Positions 37,696 through 47,987 of a stretch of 64,000 bases of DNA are shown here, in pieces. How positions within the stretch are numbered: the stretch's first letter is position 1; the number at the start of each line of letters is the position of its first letter. The stretch is taken from NCBI RefSeq assembly GCF_058153355.1, contig NZ_CM177019.1; one strand, written 5' to 3'. The translations under genes and the position numbers were made by a program. Below the pieces are notes generated by a model that ran no database searches, was not told the origin of the DNA, and saw only the letters and a list, made by a program, of their open reading frames with translations.

Positions 37696-40386
<2,691 letters not shown>

Positions 40387-40416
40387 TGTGTTTACTGATA
40401 TGAAAAGAGTTTAACA

Positions 40417-41241
40417 ATGCAGCAGTTACAGAACATTATTGAAACCGCTTTTGAACGCCGTGCCGAGATCACGCCAGCCAATGCAGACACCGTTACCCGC
40501 GAAGCGGTAAATCAGGTGATCGCCCTGCTGGATTCCGGCGCACTGCGTGTAGCGGAAAAAATTGACGGTCAGTGGGTGACGCATCAGTGGTTGAAAAAAG
40601 CGGTGCTGCTCTCTTTCCGTATTAATGATAATCAGGTGATCGAAGGGGCAGAAAGCCGCTACTTCGACAAAGTGCCGATGAAATTCGCTAACTACGATGA
40701 AGCACGTTTCCAGAAAGAAGGCTTCCGCGTCGTGCCACCAGCGGCAGTACGTCAAGGTGCGTTTATCGCCCGTAACACCGTGCTGATGCCGTCTTACGTC
40801 AACATCGGCGCATATGTTGATGAAGGCACCATGGTTGATACCTGGGCGACCGTCGGTTCCTGTGCGCAGATTGGTAAAAATGTCCACCTTTCCGGTGGCG
40901 TAGGTATCGGCGGCGTGCTGGAGCCGCTGCAGGCTAATCCGACCATCATTGAAGATAACTGCTTCATCGGCGCGCGCTCTGAAGTGGTTGAAGGCGTAAT
41001 TGTCGAAGAAGGTTCCGTCATCTCTATGGGCGTATACATTGGTCAAAGCACCCGTATTTACGACCGTGAAACCGGCGAAATCCACTACGGTCGCGTTCCG
41101 GCGGGGTCTGTGGTTGTTTCAGGTAATCTGCCGTCGAAAGATGGCAAATACAGCCTCTACTGTGCGGTGATCGTTAAGAAAGTTGACGCGAAAACTCGCG
41201 GCAAAGTCGGCATTAACGAACTGCTACGCACCATCGACTAA
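40417..41241 (+). CDS. dapD: 2,3,4,5-tetrahydropyridine-2,6-dicarboxylate N-succinyltransferase
   Basis: 274-aa ORF with hexapeptide repeats; recognised as DapD. Confidence 0.96.
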
Positions 41242-41253
41242 AAGTATGCACAC

Positions 41254-41285
41254 GGGCAGCACGACGCTGCCCGATTGCTTTCTGG
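41254..41285 (+). terminator. putative terminator after dapD
   Basis: GGGCAGCacgacGCTGCCC followed by GATTGCTTTCTGGTT (moderately T-rich). Confidence 0.55.
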
Positions 41286-41553
41286 TTCAGAATAATTCGT
41301 CCTACTCATTCTTCTTCCCCTTTTTTAAATACTTTTTCATCTTGTTTCGGACTGTCATGTAATTCGCAAAACAAAGATAAATGTGCTAATCCATCCCATG
41401 GAATATCGCCACAATAAAGCAGGTAATTTTTTGATTTTTACGCCATGATAGAAGTCTGGAAGAAAAAGGCTTTCTGCGATCACAGTCGAGCCGGGCGGGC
41501 CAGGCCAAATGCTAAAATAAGCACAATTTACTGACTCATTTTGAGGTAACGCT

Positions 41554-41940
41554 ATGTACGACAATCTGAAAAGTCTGGGTATTACCAATCCTGAAGAAAT
41601 TGATCGTTACAGCCTCCGGCAGGAAGCCAACAACGATATTCTGAAAATCTATTTCCAGAAAGACAAAGGCGAGTTTTTCGCCAAGAGCGTGAAATTTAAA
41701 TATCCACGTCAGCGCAAAACGATAGTCGCTGATGGTGTGGGTCAAGGTTATAAAGAAGTACAGGAAATCAGCCCGAACCTGCGGTATATCATTGATGAAC
41801 TTGATCAAATCTGCCAGCGTGACCGCAGCGAGGTCGATCTTAAGCGTAAGATCCTCGACGATTTACGTCACCTGGAATCAGTCGTCACTAACAAAATCAG
41901 CGAGATTGAAGCCGATCTGGAAAAACTGACACGTAAATAA
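41554..41940 (+). CDS. yaeH: UPF0325 protein YaeH
   Basis: 128-aa ORF starting [21 protein letters not shown]; recognised as YaeH. Confidence 0.9.
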
Positions 41941-41967
41941 TCCCTGACTGACGGTTAGCTCGGGTAG

Positions 41968-41994
41968 TCTCCTCTCCCCTTCGGGGTGAGGAGA
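41968..41994. other. stable stem-loop with UUCG-type tetraloop between convergent yaeH and cdaR (possible bidirectional terminator)
   Basis: TCTCCTCTCCCC-ttcg-GGGTGAGGAGA, imperfect 11-12 bp stem; no strong T-run. Confidence 0.5.
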
Positions 41995-42028
41995 ACAAGC
42001 CTGCCCCGCCTCGACCTTAACGCATAAC

Positions 42029-43186
42029 CTACCGCTCTTCATCTAGTTGCAGCGCCACATACAGCAGCAACCTGTCATCAAAATTGCCCAAATCAAGCCC
42101 GGTCAGTTCCGATATACGATTAAGCCGATACTCAAGAGTATTACGATGAATAAACAACGCCTTTGACGTTGCCAGCGGTTGCACATTGTGGCGAAACCAC
42201 GCCGCCAGCGTTCGCCGCAGCAAGCCGTTATTGTCCATCGCTTTCAGCCGCGCCAGCGGTCGCGCCAGTTCGTTGGCCTGCCAGTCGCCACGCAAACTGT
42301 CGAGCAACACAGGCAACATCAAATCCTGATAAAAATAGCAGCGACTTTCGGGCATCCGCTGTTTACCCACCACCATCGTCGTTTTCGCCGTACGATAGGA
42401 TCGGGCAATACTGCCAGGACCGGTAAAATAGTTGCCCAGCGAAACGCGAAAACGCAGCTGGCCGTACTCTTTCATGCGGGTAATCAGTTGTTCAACTCGC
42501 TTACGATGATCTTCTGCATCCCAGCGCCCAAAAGAGTTCAACGCCGGTTTCAACACCACCATTTCGGTCAGCGAGACAATCGCCACCAGATTATTACGCT
42601 CGGGCGTAGTCAGCGCGTTTTGCAGTTGCTGTAACTCCGCCATTGCGCTATCCACGCCAAGTTGACCGCTATCGACCTCAACAATAGCCACCACTCGCGG
42701 TTGATTGAGATCGATCCCCAACCGTTGCGCCCATTCAGTGAGTGCGGGAGTATTCTCCTCCGCCTGAATCAGGTTCATCACCAACTCTTCCCGCAAACGG
42801 CTATCCTGCGCCAACAGATGCATCAACCGCGACTGTTCCAGCATCATTTCAGCCGTCATGCAGACCAGTTCGCCATATTTACGCAGATTCTCTGGTTCAC
42901 CAGTCAAGCCGATTACGCCGACAATTTCACCTTCCAGCCGTAATGGTAGATTAATCCCCTGCCGCACACCGTGCAGATGACGTGCCACCGCGTCATCGAT
43001 ATCGACGACTCGTCCCTGTGAAAGTACCAGCAATGCACCTTCGTGCAATTCACCAATACGCTCACGATCGCCGCTGCCGATAATACGCCCGCGGGCATCC
43101 ATTACGTTAATATTGGTATCAATGATGCGCATGGTGCGCGCCACGATATCCTGCGCCATTTTGGTATCAAGATGCCAGCCAGCCAT
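42029..43186 (-). CDS. cdaR: carbohydrate diacid regulator CdaR (SdaR)
   Basis: ORF track 42029-43204; recognised CdaR starts MAGWHLDTKMAQDIV (385 aa); C-terminal HTH. Confidence 0.93.
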   Translation of the reverse strand: MAGWHLDTKMAQDIVARTMRIIDTNINVMDARGRIIGSGDRERIGELHEGALLVLSQGRVVDIDDAVARHLHGVRQGINLPLRLEGEIVGVIGLTGEPENLRKYGELVCMTAEMMLEQSRLMHLLAQDSRLREELVMNLIQAEENTPALTEWAQRLGIDLNQPRVVAIVEVDSGQLGVDSAMAELQQLQNALTTPERNNLVAIVSLTEMVVLKPALNSFGRWDAEDHRKRVEQLITRMKEYGQLRFRVSLGNYFTGPGSIARSYRTAKTTMVVGKQRMPESRCYFYQDLMLPVLLDSLRGDWQANELARPLARLKAMDNNGLLRRTLAAWFRHNVQPLATSKALFIHRNTLEYRLNRISELTGLDLGNFDDRLLLYVALQLDEER

Positions 43187-43304
43187 AAGTCCTCCGTTAT
43201 GCACGGCTTAGCATAAGGAAGTACGTAACGTACGGCATTGTGCAAATGCCCAAAGGATGAGGAAGATGTATGGAGTTGTGGTGAAGTTCACAGATTGTAA
43301 GGAG

Positions 43305-43332
43305 AACCCCTTCCCGTTTTCAGGAAGGGGTT
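43305..43332 (-). terminator. putative terminator after degP
   Basis: AACCCCTTCC-loop-GGAAGGGGTT hairpin immediately downstream of degP stop. Confidence 0.6.
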
Positions 43333-43340
43333 GAGGAAGA

Positions 43341-44765
43341 TTACTGCATTAACAGATAGATGGTGCTGTCGCCGCGCTGAATATTCAGTGCCAGCACAGA
43401 CGGTTTGCTGTCGAGAACTTTACGCAGTTCAGCGATGTTTTTCACTGCCTGCTGGTTCGCACCAATAATCACATCACCTTTCTTCAGGCCGATCTGCGCA
43501 GCCGGAGTGCCCGTTTTCACGTTGTTCACCACCACGCCCTGATCTTTGCCTTTGTTGCTCATCTCAGCGCCTTCAATGCCGTTGAAGATGGTGCTGGAAT
43601 CAACCTGATTCTGGCTGCTCTGCTGCAGTTCCAGGTTCACGTTAACCTGCTTCCCGTCGCGCAGTAAGCCCAGGGTCAGTTTGCTGCCTACCGGCATAGT
43701 GCCCACCTGAGCACGCAGTGCGGCAAAGCTGCTGATTGGCTTACCGTTCAGTGAGGTGATCACATCACCCGCTTTAATGCCCGCTTTCGCGGCGGAAGAG
43801 TTCGGCAGAACCTGGCTTACGAAAGCACCGCGCTGGGCGTCAACTTTCATCGCTTTCGCCAGATCGGAGTTCAGCTCAGTCCCCATAATACCCAGCTCAC
43901 CGCGTTTCACCTGGCCGTATTCCACCATCTGCGAGGTCAGGTTTTTCACCATGTTGCTCGGGATAGCAAAACCGATACCGATGTTTCCGCCGTCCGGTGC
44001 GAGGATCGCGGTGTTGATACCAATCAGTTCGCCGTTCAGGTTAACCAGCGCGCCACCAGAGTTACCCCGGTTGATCGCTGCATCGGTCTGGATGAAGTTT
44101 TCGTAGTTTTCAGCGTTCAGGCCGCTACGTCCCAGCGCAGAGACAATCCCGGAAGTTACTGTCTCGCCCAGGCCGAACGGGTTACCAATTGCTACGGTGT
44201 AATCACCCACGCGCAGTGCATCAGAATCCGCCATCTTAATTGCGGTCAGGTTTTTCGGATTCTGGATCTGGATCAGCGCGATATCAGAGCGCGGATCTTT
44301 GCCAACCATCTTCGCGTCGAACTTACGACCATCGCTCAGCTGGACTTTAATCACCGTCGCGTTATCAACAACGTGGTTGTTGGTGACGACATAGCCTTTA
44401 TCGGCATCAATGATGACGCCGGAACCCAGCGCCATGAATTTTTGTTGCTGGCCGCCGCCATTACCGCCCTGGCCCCCCTGGCAGAACGGAGAGCTCTGGA
44501 ACGGAGAACCTTCCTGGCAGAACGGAGAATCATCACCGAAGAACTGCTGGAAATTACGCGGCATACGCGGCGTATTAACGGTTGTGCTACCTTCTACGTT
44601 AATGCTGACCACTGAAGGCATCACCTTTTCGAGCATTGGTGCAAGGCTTGGTATCTGCTGGGCTGTCGTTGCTGAAGAAGTCTCAGCCGCCGTTGCAGAG
44701 AGCGGAGATAACGCCAAACCTAAACTCAGAGCCAGTGCACTCAGTGCTAATGTGGTTTTTTTCAT
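43341..44765 (-). CDS. degP: periplasmic serine endoprotease/chaperone DegP (HtrA)
   Basis: 474-aa ORF with signal peptide, trypsin-like protease domain (GNSGGAL) and two PDZ domains; recognised as DegP. Confidence 0.96.
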   Translation of the reverse strand: MKKTTLALSALALSLGLALSPLSATAAETSSATTAQQIPSLAPMLEKVMPSVVSINVEGSTTVNTPRMPRNFQQFFGDDSPFCQEGSPFQSSPFCQGGQGGNGGGQQQKFMALGSGVIIDADKGYVVTNNHVVDNATVIKVQLSDGRKFDAKMVGKDPRSDIALIQIQNPKNLTAIKMADSDALRVGDYTVAIGNPFGLGETVTSGIVSALGRSGLNAENYENFIQTDAAINRGNSGGALVNLNGELIGINTAILAPDGGNIGIGFAIPSNMVKNLTSQMVEYGQVKRGELGIMGTELNSDLAKAMKVDAQRGAFVSQVLPNSSAAKAGIKAGDVITSLNGKPISSFAALRAQVGTMPVGSKLTLGLLRDGKQVNVNLELQQSSQNQVDSSTIFNGIEGAEMSNKGKDQGVVVNNVKTGTPAAQIGLKKGDVIIGANQQAVKNIAELRKVLDSKPSVLALNIQRGDSTIYLLMQ

Positions 44766-44894: not shown

Positions 44895-46412
44895 TTATTG
44901 TTCTACGGCCATCAGACGTCGGTATTCATCCCACGCATAGAGGTCGGTCATACCGCTGATATAATCCTGTAGCAGGCGGCAGCGGTAATAATATTCCCAT
45001 AGCGGAAACTCAGGAGAATCTGACGGTAATTTACTGACAGCCTCGACATAGGCCAGCCGATGGCGCGTCGAGAGTTTGTGGAATAAGCGCGATTCAATAG
45101 GGAAACGTTTCACCCGTTCTTTTTCTACCAATTCAGTAAAGTCTGATAACGACAGGCTTAATAAAGGGCGATAAATCTCTAATAATCCGCTAATGACCCG
45201 ATAGCCCTGCAATTCAAGCTGCTCGACATCTGGATGGCTAAACACATGTTTTACAGCGACATTTTTATATAGCTTTAGAAGATCGCTGCATTCGCTGGCA
45301 TCTTCCAATAATGCATGATTAAACGTTCCGGCGAAAATCGCAGGCAGATTATCAATAAATCGTTGTGCCGCGTAGGGTACCAGTTTATTTAGGGTGTTTA
45401 CCCGTAAATACATAAAAAACTGATCTTCCGTACTGCGGCTTAAACTATTTGAGCGTGATTTTTCCCAGGCATTTTCAACCACCAGCGAAAAGAGCGAACC
45501 TTTCTCATGCTGGCCCCACGCTTCGTGCAAATGATGATAAAGCTGCTCAACGCTGAATATTCTTTTCTCTACCGCATCTTCAAGATCTGCCACACAATAG
45601 GAGATGTCGTCGGCAGCTTCCATAATCCACGTTAATGGAAAACGACTGTAAAGCGCCAAATTAAGTTCTTTACGCAACCGGGCAATATAGGCTTCTTCAG
45701 AAAGATAATAACCCGGCTTTTTCATTAAATAGTGATGTGTCTCAGGCGTTTCACCACGCCACCACGCCGGACGAGTATATTTTAAAATACCGCCAACCTG
45801 TGCCCAGGTGAGATTCATCCGCATCAATGTATGCACCAGACGAATGCCTTGTGCATTCCCCTCAAAATGACATAAGTCCTGACGTATTTTGCGCCGCAGC
45901 TCGTTAAGCGGTTCTTCCCCTTCCCGTAAACGTAATGCCGCCACGCTGCAGCGATCGTCAGTCAGAGGCTGGCTTTCGGCATCAGCCGGAAACAAACGCT
46001 GGCGAAACCAGTCATTTATCGCCGCTTCACCAAAATGACCAAACGGCGGATTGCCGATATCGTGCATCAGGCATGACATCTCAACAATACTTTCAAAGGG
46101 GCCGGTCAGTTCATCCAGACCATAATCTTCCAGTAATTTAAGCTCTTTCAGACGGCTTAAAATTTCTTTGGCGATGTAGCGCCCCACCTGCTGGACTTCC
46201 ATTGAATGGGTTAGACGCGTGCGCACGGCGGCATTTCGCTCCAGCGGAAAAACCTGGGTCTTTTGTTGCAGACGACGAATTGCCGGAGAGTTGATAATAC
46301 GCCCACGATCGCTCTCAAAGATTCGCAGGATCTCATGTTCGGTTTTAACGCCCTGTGGTGAACGGTAACGACGATGCCAGTTTATTTTTTTTCGGAAATC
46401 AATCTGTGCCAT
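44895..46412 (-). CDS. dgt: deoxyguanosinetriphosphate triphosphohydrolase
   Basis: 505-aa ORF with HD-domain motifs; recognised as Dgt. Confidence 0.95.
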
Positions 46413-46495
46413 GTCCTCTCCCGCGTGAGAAATACGCTTCCCCGTAAGCGCATGGTAAACTATGCCTTCAAATCGGGCTTATCGCGAGTAAATCT

Positions 46496-47194
46496 ATGAA
46501 AATCGGCATCATTGGTGCAATGGAAGAAGAAGTTACGCTGCTGCGTGACAAAATCGAAAACCGCCAAACTATCAGTCTGGGCGGTTGCGAAATCTATACC
46601 GGCCAACTGAATGGAACCGAAGTTGCGCTTCTGAAATCGGGCATCGGTAAAGTTGCTGCGGCACTGGGTGCAACTCTGCTGTTGGAACACTGCAAGCCAG
46701 ATGTGATTATTAACACCGGTTCTGCCGGTGGCCTGGCGCCAACGCTGAAAGTGGGCGATATCGTTGTCTCGGACGAAGCACGTTATCACGACGCGGATGT
46801 CACGGCATTTGGTTACGAATACGGTCAGTTACCTGGCTGCCCGGCTGGCTTCAAAGCTGACGATAAACTGATCGCTGCCGCTGAGGCCTGCATTGCCGAA
46901 CTGAATCTTAACGCTGTACGTGGCCTGATTGTCAGCGGCGACGCTTTCATCAACGGTTCTGTTGGCCTGGCGAAAATCCGCCACAACTTCCCGCAGGCCA
47001 TTGCTGTAGAGATGGAAGCGACGGCAATCGCTCATGTCTGCCACAATTTCAACGTCCCGTTTGTTGTCGTACGCGCCATCTCCGACGTGGCCGATCAACA
47101 GTCTCATCTTAGCTTCGATGAGTTCCTGGCTGTTGCTGCTAAACAGTCCAGCCTGATGGTTGAGTCACTGGTGCAGAAACTGGCACATGGCTAA
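46496..47194 (+). CDS. mtn: 5'-methylthioadenosine/S-adenosylhomocysteine nucleosidase
   Basis: 232-aa ORF starting [13 protein letters not shown]; recognised as Mtn (Pfs). Confidence 0.96.
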
Positions 47195-47987
47195 GTCACT
47201 GTTCAGGGCGCTGGTCGCCCTGTCTTTTCTCGCCCCTCTGTGGCTCAACGCCGCACCGCGCGTCATCACGCTTTCACCCGCCAACACTGAACTTGCTTTT
47301 GCCGCCGGGATCACGCCGGTTGGGGTCAGCAGTTATTCCGACTACCCTCCACAAGCGCAAAAGATTGAGCAGGTTTCAACCTGGCAGGGGATGAATCTCG
47401 AACGCATTGTGGCCCTTAAACCCGATCTGGTGATTGCCTGGCGTGGAGGTAATGCCGAGCGGCAGGTTGACCAGTTAGCTTCGCTGGGAATAAAAGTGAT
47501 GTGGGTCGATGCGACAAGCATTGAACAAATTGCCAATGCGTTACGTCAACTGGCCCCCTGGAGCCCACAACCGGACAAGGCTGAACAAGCCGCGCAATCC
47601 CTGCTGGACCAGTACGCACAATTGAAAGCGCAATATGCTGATAAACCTAAAAAACGTGTTTTTCTGCAATTCGGCATTAATCCGCCATTTACCAGTGGAA
47701 AAGAATCGATTCAAAACCAGGTACTCGAAGTTTGTGGCGGAGAAAACATCTTTAAAGATAGCCGGGTTCCCTGGCCGCAAGTTAGCCGCGAACAGGTGTT
47801 AGCACGCGCGCCACAGGCAATTGTCATTACCGGCGGACCGGACCAAATTCCTAAAATCAAACAATACTGGGGCGAACAGCTCAAAATTCCCGTTATTCCT
47901 CTCACGAGTGACTGGTTTGAACGTGCAAGCCCACGTATTATCCTCGCTGCACAACAGCTCTGTAATGCGCTTTCACAGGTAGATTAG
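47187..47987 (+). CDS. btuF: vitamin B12 ABC transporter periplasmic binding protein
   Basis: ORF track starts 47160; recognised BtuF starts [22 protein letters not shown] (266 aa), overlapping mtn stop by 8 bp. Confidence 0.93.

Follow-up and report, generated by a model that had tools for sequence, protein, structure and literature searches.

A probable stub of a yaeI-containing islet in the dapD-yaeH spacer of Escherichia coli

The 312-bp spacer that separates dapD from yaeH (41242-41553) in a 64,000-nucleotide stretch of Escherichia coli DNA (hereafter, the window) is very probably what remains of a small islet of horizontal origin, that is, a deletion derivative of a cassette that carried yaeI and a second gene, here termed orfX. 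The genes around the spacer are intact and syntenic with those of K-12, as a sequence-only reading of the window had stated, and include: (i) glnD (37714-40386) and dapD (40417-41241, plus strand, 274 aa) on the upstream side, and (ii) yaeH (41554-41940, plus strand, 128 aa, PF11944/DUF3461), cdaR (42029-43204, minus strand) and degP (43341-44765, minus strand) on the downstream side. The open reading frame (ORF) listing from which these positions are taken agrees with the same reading on the dapD stop (41241), the yaeH start (41554) and the 312-bp gap. The dapD and yaeH genes form the conserved left and right flanks of a variable site, with the DapD of the window sharing 99.6-100% amino-acid identity with E. 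coli DapD. The largest ORFs listed inside the spacer, of 77 and 59 aa, are chance frames.

In K-12 MG1655, the dapD-yaeH spacer is 1027 bp and holds yaeI (813 bp) on the same strand, in the order dapD-yaeI-yaeH (b0166-b0164-b0163) that the sequence-only reading had given; the flanking genes, their orientation and the dapD terminator hairpin are as in the window. YaeI (the PRK11340 phosphodiesterase) is a calcineurin-like metallophosphoesterase of PF00149 and a distant relative of LpxG; the yaeI coding sequence is untraceable in the window. The K-12 protein matches NF008460 at 531 bits as well as PF00149, and has a Tat-type signal (a borderline match). A tblastn search of the whole 64-kb window with K-12 YaeI returns a best E value of 1.8 at an unrelated position and no match in the spacer, and the absence of yaeI from the spacer is thus confirmed. 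Similarly, the 842-bp K-12 segment that includes yaeI has no blastn match in the window spacer, and no YaeI-like ORF or pseudogene (PF00149, NF008460) is found in 41242-41553 or in the rest of the 64-kb window. Alignment to K-12 is restricted to two blocks, 41142-41276 (to 35 bp past the dapD stop) and 41404-41653 (from 150 bp before yaeH, these 150 bp being 98.7% identical). Between the blocks, the window has 127 bp (41277-41403) and K-12 has 842 bp, composed of yaeI with 18 bp upstream and 11 bp downstream, and the two segments share no similarity. Thus, the difference is not the clean presence or absence of a gene that had been described, but an exchange of 842 bp for 127 non-homologous bp. 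The direct repeats that had been suggested as markers of the junction do not occur, as no repeat pair, direct or inverted, brackets 41277-41403 and no junction microhomology is detected. As a separate observation, K-12 YaeI (positions 1677-2486 of the extracted MG1655 locus) reaches 122 bits, against a cutoff of 350, on the NCBIfam model of LpxG, a lipid A enzyme, and mutants with a transposon in yaeI featured among those that T7 selection enriched (PMC7414163); both may be relevant to why loss of yaeI is tolerated or favoured.

A fuller state of the site is exemplified by Escherichia sp. MOD1-EC7003, in which a dapD-yaeH spacer of 1707 bp encodes yaeI followed, after 14 nt, by orfX. The latter is our own name for a hypothetical gene of 235-245 aa that resides beside yaeI. 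The MOD1-EC7003 homolog is 236 aa, ends in ...CEPVPWGIARIKQVIF and matches no Pfam, NCBIfam or PADLOC family. The OrfX protein is uncharacterised; its structure is modelled with confidence and has no close relative in the PDB, such that it might merit separate study. A resemblance to the ADP-ribosyltransferase fold is indicated only weakly. The order dapD-yaeI-orfX-yaeH is common to E. coli GF43, MOD1-EC7003, several E. albertii strains, Pseudocitrobacter cyperus and a record labelled Salmonella enterica (L093). Partial forms include orfX without yaeI (Enterobacter sp. kpr-6), a 64%-identical yaeI homolog without orfX (an unidentified enteric) and a truncated yaeI (one Superficieibacter). YaeI homologs of at least 81% identity are almost all labelled Escherichia, those of 64-69% occupy the same site in Superficieibacter-like enterics, and those of the tier below (about 45-58%) bear labels such as Verrucomicrobiota, a distribution which, on protein similarity, is consistent with horizontal acquisition. 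Integrase or mobility genes, terminal inverted repeats and target-site duplications are not found in the islet.

Sequence specific to the islet is retained at both ends of the window spacer and is colinear with the intact islets. At the left end, the dapD terminator hairpin (41253-41273, plus strand, CGGGCAGCACGACGCTGCCCG) forms 8 pairs with a fold z-score of -3.3, in agreement with the terminator-like hairpin noted earlier, and is of the islet type common to K-12, GF43 and E. albertii. By contrast, genera free of the islet have a different dapD hairpin (AAAAAGCGGGnnnnCCCGCTTTTTTT). At the right end, positions 41384-41553 correspond to the 3' end of orfX (41384-41434, plus strand) and the orfX-yaeH spacer of the islet (41435-41553, plus strand), the latter of which includes the yaeH promoter region and ribosome-binding site and is nearly invariant in Escherichia. 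Identity over this right-end segment is 96% to GF43, 91% to MOD1-EC7003, 78% to L093 and 74% to kpr-6, while the E. albertii counterpart is 89% identical in an alignment that starts at 41373. The orfX fragment is disabled. It has no start codon, comprises the last 17 codons of the gene and translates to C*SIPWNIATIKQVIF* in the window versus CEPVPWGIATIKQVIF* in GF43, with an in-frame stop generated by a change of GAA to TAA at 41387-41389 upstream of the original TGA stop (41432-41434). The C-terminal motif of OrfX, E-x-V-P-W...K, has E, V, P, W and K residues that are invariant across the family; thus, the window fragment derives from the gene and not the reverse. With hairpin, orfX 3' end and spacer all kept, the short allele is recognised as a deletion derivative of the islet. 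Compared to the intact islets of GF43, MOD1-EC7003, E. albertii and P. cyperus, with which it shares the insertion site, the left-end hairpin and the right-end orfX 3' end and spacer, the window lacks the whole of yaeI and some 93% of orfX (about 1.45 kb in total) and has 76 bp that are absent from those islets.

The K-12 allele is, on comparison of the junctions, a separate deletion derivative of the islet in which orfX alone was lost. The yaeI stop of K-12 is followed by 11 nt and then by the last 10 codons of orfX (ITRIKQVIF*), compared to the 17 codons left in the window. The same yaeI-only junction is observed in the E. albertii type strain, E. whittamii and one further Escherichia locus (L005). 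K-12 is, therefore, not the intact reference state at dapD-yaeH, the fuller state being the islet of yaeI and orfX.

The 127-bp segment that is specific to short alleles (41277-41403, 35% GC) and replaces the yaeI-containing 842 bp of K-12 starts just past the dapD hairpin, where the window reads ATTGCTTTCT and the yaeI-bearing alleles read ATTTTTTTG. The interrupted T-run of the window may weaken termination at this hairpin. Alignment with E. albertii extends beyond the hairpin to 41296 (41/48 identical overall, which is not significant alone), and positions 41277-41296 (plus strand), which show weak colinear similarity, probably represent what is left, after decay, of the 5' leader and start region of yaeI. 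The weakness of this homology counts against the islet-stub reading. The 76 bp that follow (41297-41372) have no matched source and include a pyrimidine tract (about 41305-41332), the length of which varies among strains through indels in the alignment of short alleles, and an invariant stretch of 42 bp (41333-41374) that overruns the segment by 2 bp and is the same in all sampled short alleles. Local alignment of the 76 bp to nine islet alleles, on both strands and with shuffle controls, detects no significant match, and anchoring the alignment on the 3' end of orfX adds just a colinear 12/14 match of 41343-41356 to the IPDWQ codons of orfX, which is not significant. Since the 76 bp are unmatched, a simple deletion with two breakpoints in a GF43-like islet does not account for the event; the segment is instead either captured filler DNA, the legacy of an unsampled, divergent islet parent, or the product of several deletions combined with tract slippage. 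By blastn, the 127-bp module matches only mislabelled chromosomal records in the plasmid collection and only 27-nt chance stretches in phages. It bears no footprint of a mobile element (IS, MITE or REP) and is single-copy in every genome that carries it.

The polarity of the change is fixed by related genera. A YaeH scan of one genome per species yielded 80 loci; E. fergusonii, E. marmotae, E. ruysiae and Salmonella are outside this set, such that the history of the alleles within the genus is incompletely sampled. Among the 80 loci, those of about 70 non-Escherichia species of Enterobacteriaceae (including Citrobacter, Klebsiella, Enterobacter, Kluyvera, Raoultella and Cedecea) have a dapD-yaeH spacer of just 106-122 bp and no yaeI. 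The terminator and yaeH upstream region of these spacers are conserved among one another and are unrelated to the Escherichia spacer save for the last 12-25 bp or so. DapD and YaeH retain 94-98% protein identity across genera. The empty site of these roughly 70 species is thus of a different sequence. Within Escherichia, the short allele is represented by Escherichia sp. E1V33, and yaeI by L005, E. whittamii and the type strain of E. albertii. Three loci of the scan (L049, L058 and L076) have different, non-yaeI inserts between dapD and yaeH, with spacers of 2587, 646 and 492 bp, respectively, and small inserts seem to land in this spacer repeatedly.

The short allele predominates in E. coli. 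Of 5,426 complete genomes, 5,424 of which have the locus, the 127-bp module is detected in 3,338 (one copy each), the yaeI segment in 2,085 and orfX, as part of the two-gene islet, in a single genome. Together, the counts of the short and yaeI alleles reach 5,423, one below the 5,424 genomes with the locus, from which the site would be essentially biallelic and the two alleles mutually exclusive. With the short allele in the majority (61.5%), the absence of yaeI is not unusual. Short alleles are found in O157:H7 and an O2:H1 strain, among others, and yaeI alleles in K-12 and derivatives of the B strain. In a published pan-genome comparison, yaeI is unevenly distributed and enriched in phylogroup A (PMC5422975). 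The yaeI alleles of E. coli are unusually diverse, with nucleotide identity down to 86.7%. Short alleles also diverge: the module of Escherichia sp. E1V33 is 93.7% identical to that of the window, with flanks that are just 89-93% identical, and the short allele of the divergent E. coli BS-04 is 82% identical overall yet matches the 42-bp core exactly.

Other explanations of the short spacer were weighed against the islet stub. That the short spacer is the ancestral state of Escherichia, with yaeI inserted in the K-12 lineage, would be in keeping with the lack of yaeI at this site in most Enterobacteriaceae, with the majority status of the short allele in E. coli and with the signs of horizontal acquisition of YaeI. 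The truly empty site is, however, the spacer of about 110 bp and other sequence, not one of 312 bp, and the short allele holds the islet hairpin, the 17 disabled codons of orfX and the orfX-yaeH spacer in an order colinear with islets of four genera. The orfX C-terminus, being conserved in its own family, was also not recruited from host DNA. An ancestral short spacer is, thus, very improbable, and of the two possibilities left open by the sequence-only reading, a deletion in the window or an insertion in K-12, the former is upheld by the islet remnants and the latter is not. An equally slight probability is assigned to the short allele having arisen recurrently, by independent deletions in many lineages. 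The yaeI gene is prone to inactivation, with IS1 insertion and truncation in some strains, and the unrelated inserts of L076, L058 and L049 mark the site as variable; but the nine short alleles examined, one of which is from a different Escherichia species, have identical left and right boundaries and the same 76-bp filler, which independent deletions would not reproduce. Together with the identical 42-bp core, the shared boundaries point to a single origin of the short allele, and each of the two deletions (K-12 type and short type) looks like a single old event. An artefact of assembly or annotation in the window has next to no probability, as CFSAN061763, Ec-U18 and other independent complete genomes carry the identical 312-bp sequence, and the module is present in the 3,338 genomes noted above.

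A further explanation, in which the 127-bp module is a functional replacement kept by selection (whether as a small RNA, a regulatory element of dapD or yaeH, or an 18-aa peptide), is considered unlikely. In its favour are the 42-bp core, identical in all sampled short alleles including that of BS-04, and the possibility that the interrupted T-run after the dapD hairpin could permit read-through. The best Rfam 15 match in the spacer is, by contrast, to sroE at 21 bits, far from the threshold of 51, and lies over the terminator hairpin, with nothing matched in 41277-41553. Folding of the stub RNA on either strand gives z-scores of -0.41 and +1.25 and, thus, no signal, and a promoter/terminator consensus scan finds the dapD hairpin alone and no promoter-like site in the stub. 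The module is also more variable (93-100%) than the adjoining spacer. The candidate peptide is the 18-codon, highly basic ORF on the minus strand (41302-41358, with the ATG at 41358 and the stop at 41302-41304; MTVRNKMKKYLKKGKKNE). Its first 13 codons are conserved; in the nine short alleles, however, the frame shifts after codon 13 with the indels of the pyrimidine tract, giving products of 16-47 aa with unrelated tails, and no Shine-Dalgarno sequence is found in the upstream TTTTGCGAATTAC. The 13 codons are kept only because the underlying DNA is conserved. This ORF is a chance ORF in remnant DNA and not a gene, as the sequence-only reading had judged.

The islet-stub reading suggests the following history. 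The ancestral Enterobacteriaceae would have had a spacer of about 110 bp with a dapD terminator and yaeH promoter. A cassette of about 1.7 kb would then have taken the place of the entire spacer in the lineage of Escherichia and, sporadically, in a few further genera, bringing its own terminator hairpin, yaeI (encoding a metallophosphoesterase with a Tat signal), orfX and a new yaeH-proximal spacer. Homologous recombination within conserved dapD and yaeH sequence on either side presumably moves the islet and its deleted forms. One old internal deletion is proposed to have removed nearly all of orfX to give the yaeI-only allele of K-12, and another to have removed yaeI and most of orfX to give the short allele of the window. 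The short allele would thereby keep the hairpin, perhaps the yaeI leader, about 76 bp of other sequence, 17 orfX codons interrupted by a stop in frame, and the spacer next to yaeH. With the yaeH promoter retained and nothing functional-looking in the stub, the loss would be limited to yaeI and orfX and may well be neutral. Recombination would then shuffle the three alleles among E. coli backgrounds.

Exchange of this type is suggested by the relationship of the window to its nearest genomes. The closest complete genome over the 20 kb upstream, 2020CK-00188 (99.1%), carries yaeI, while the stub of the window is 100% identical to that of CFSAN061763, the flanking genes of which differ by 3-4%. 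The allele is, therefore, decoupled from its genomic background, and all three alleles are found in more than one Escherichia species. A zero-difference stretch of 464 bp versus CFSAN061763 (41230-41693) was considered as a recent recombination tract that reaches into yaeH, and was partly rejected; identity across Escherichia is 98-100% in the first 140 nt of yaeH, which leaves only the stub as informative on recombination. An origin of the window from a non-coli Escherichia, suggested by the 95-97% identity of glnD, dapD and cdaR to K-12 and CFSAN061763, was rejected, as the best complete E. coli genome is 99.0-99.1% identical over 11-20 kb. The same range of 95-97% applies to the whole set of glnD, dapD, cdaR and degP (37714-44765). 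Divergence from the closest complete genome (about 99% identical) peaks around 40500-42000 and 46000-47500. Few complete genomes represent the lineage of the window strain, and diversity rises locally near the variable site.

The loss of yaeI in the window is an ordinary polymorphism in gene content, in which a dispensable gene of horizontal origin has gone and a pseudogene stub is left, a pattern familiar in E. coli. Like the deletion scars of accessory genes in this species generally, it combines internal deletion, a leftover pseudogene fragment and shuffling by recombination, and nothing differs in kind; particular to this site are three old alleles that extend across Escherichia species and the 76-bp filler. 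No published description of the dapD-yaeH polymorphism was found in the literature searched, where the two-gene islet, the three cross-species alleles and the status of K-12 as a deletion form appear to be undescribed, although none of them is surprising. K-12 is not a neutral reference at dapD-yaeH, as it carries a deletion derivative of the islet itself, and the lack of yaeI relative to K-12 is what most E. coli show. For annotation, the spacer is best treated as the stub of a pseudogene, with no call made for the 18-codon ORF. Strains that are naturally yaeI-null are abundant and may help studies of YaeI.

Expression of yaeH should be unaffected by the deletion, as the 150 bp next to yaeH are intact and hardly vary, and a constitutive sigma-70 promoter of yaeH is mapped to the yaeI-yaeH spacer of K-12 (PMC3946193). 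We read TGCTAAAAT at 41510-41518 as the putative extended -10 element of the yaeH promoter region, although the consensus scan found no promoter here. The yaeH gene itself is unevenly conserved. Its first 140 nt (41554-41693) are 98-100% identical across Escherichia species (99.3% in E. albertii), compared to just 87-92% for the remaining 247 nt (41694-41940), while the protein is about 99% conserved throughout. A milder contrast is apparent in other genera, with 85-94% identity in the 5' part versus 77-86%. This pattern suggests that the 5' third of yaeH may be under nucleotide-level constraint. A second small indel polymorphism resides on the other side of yaeH, in the spacer to cdaR (41950-41996), where a hairpin element of about 35 bp with arms TCTCCTCTCCCC and GGGGTGAGGAGA at 41968-41994 is shared by the window with K-12 and missing from CFSAN061763 and several other strains, giving spacers of 88 and 53 bp, respectively.
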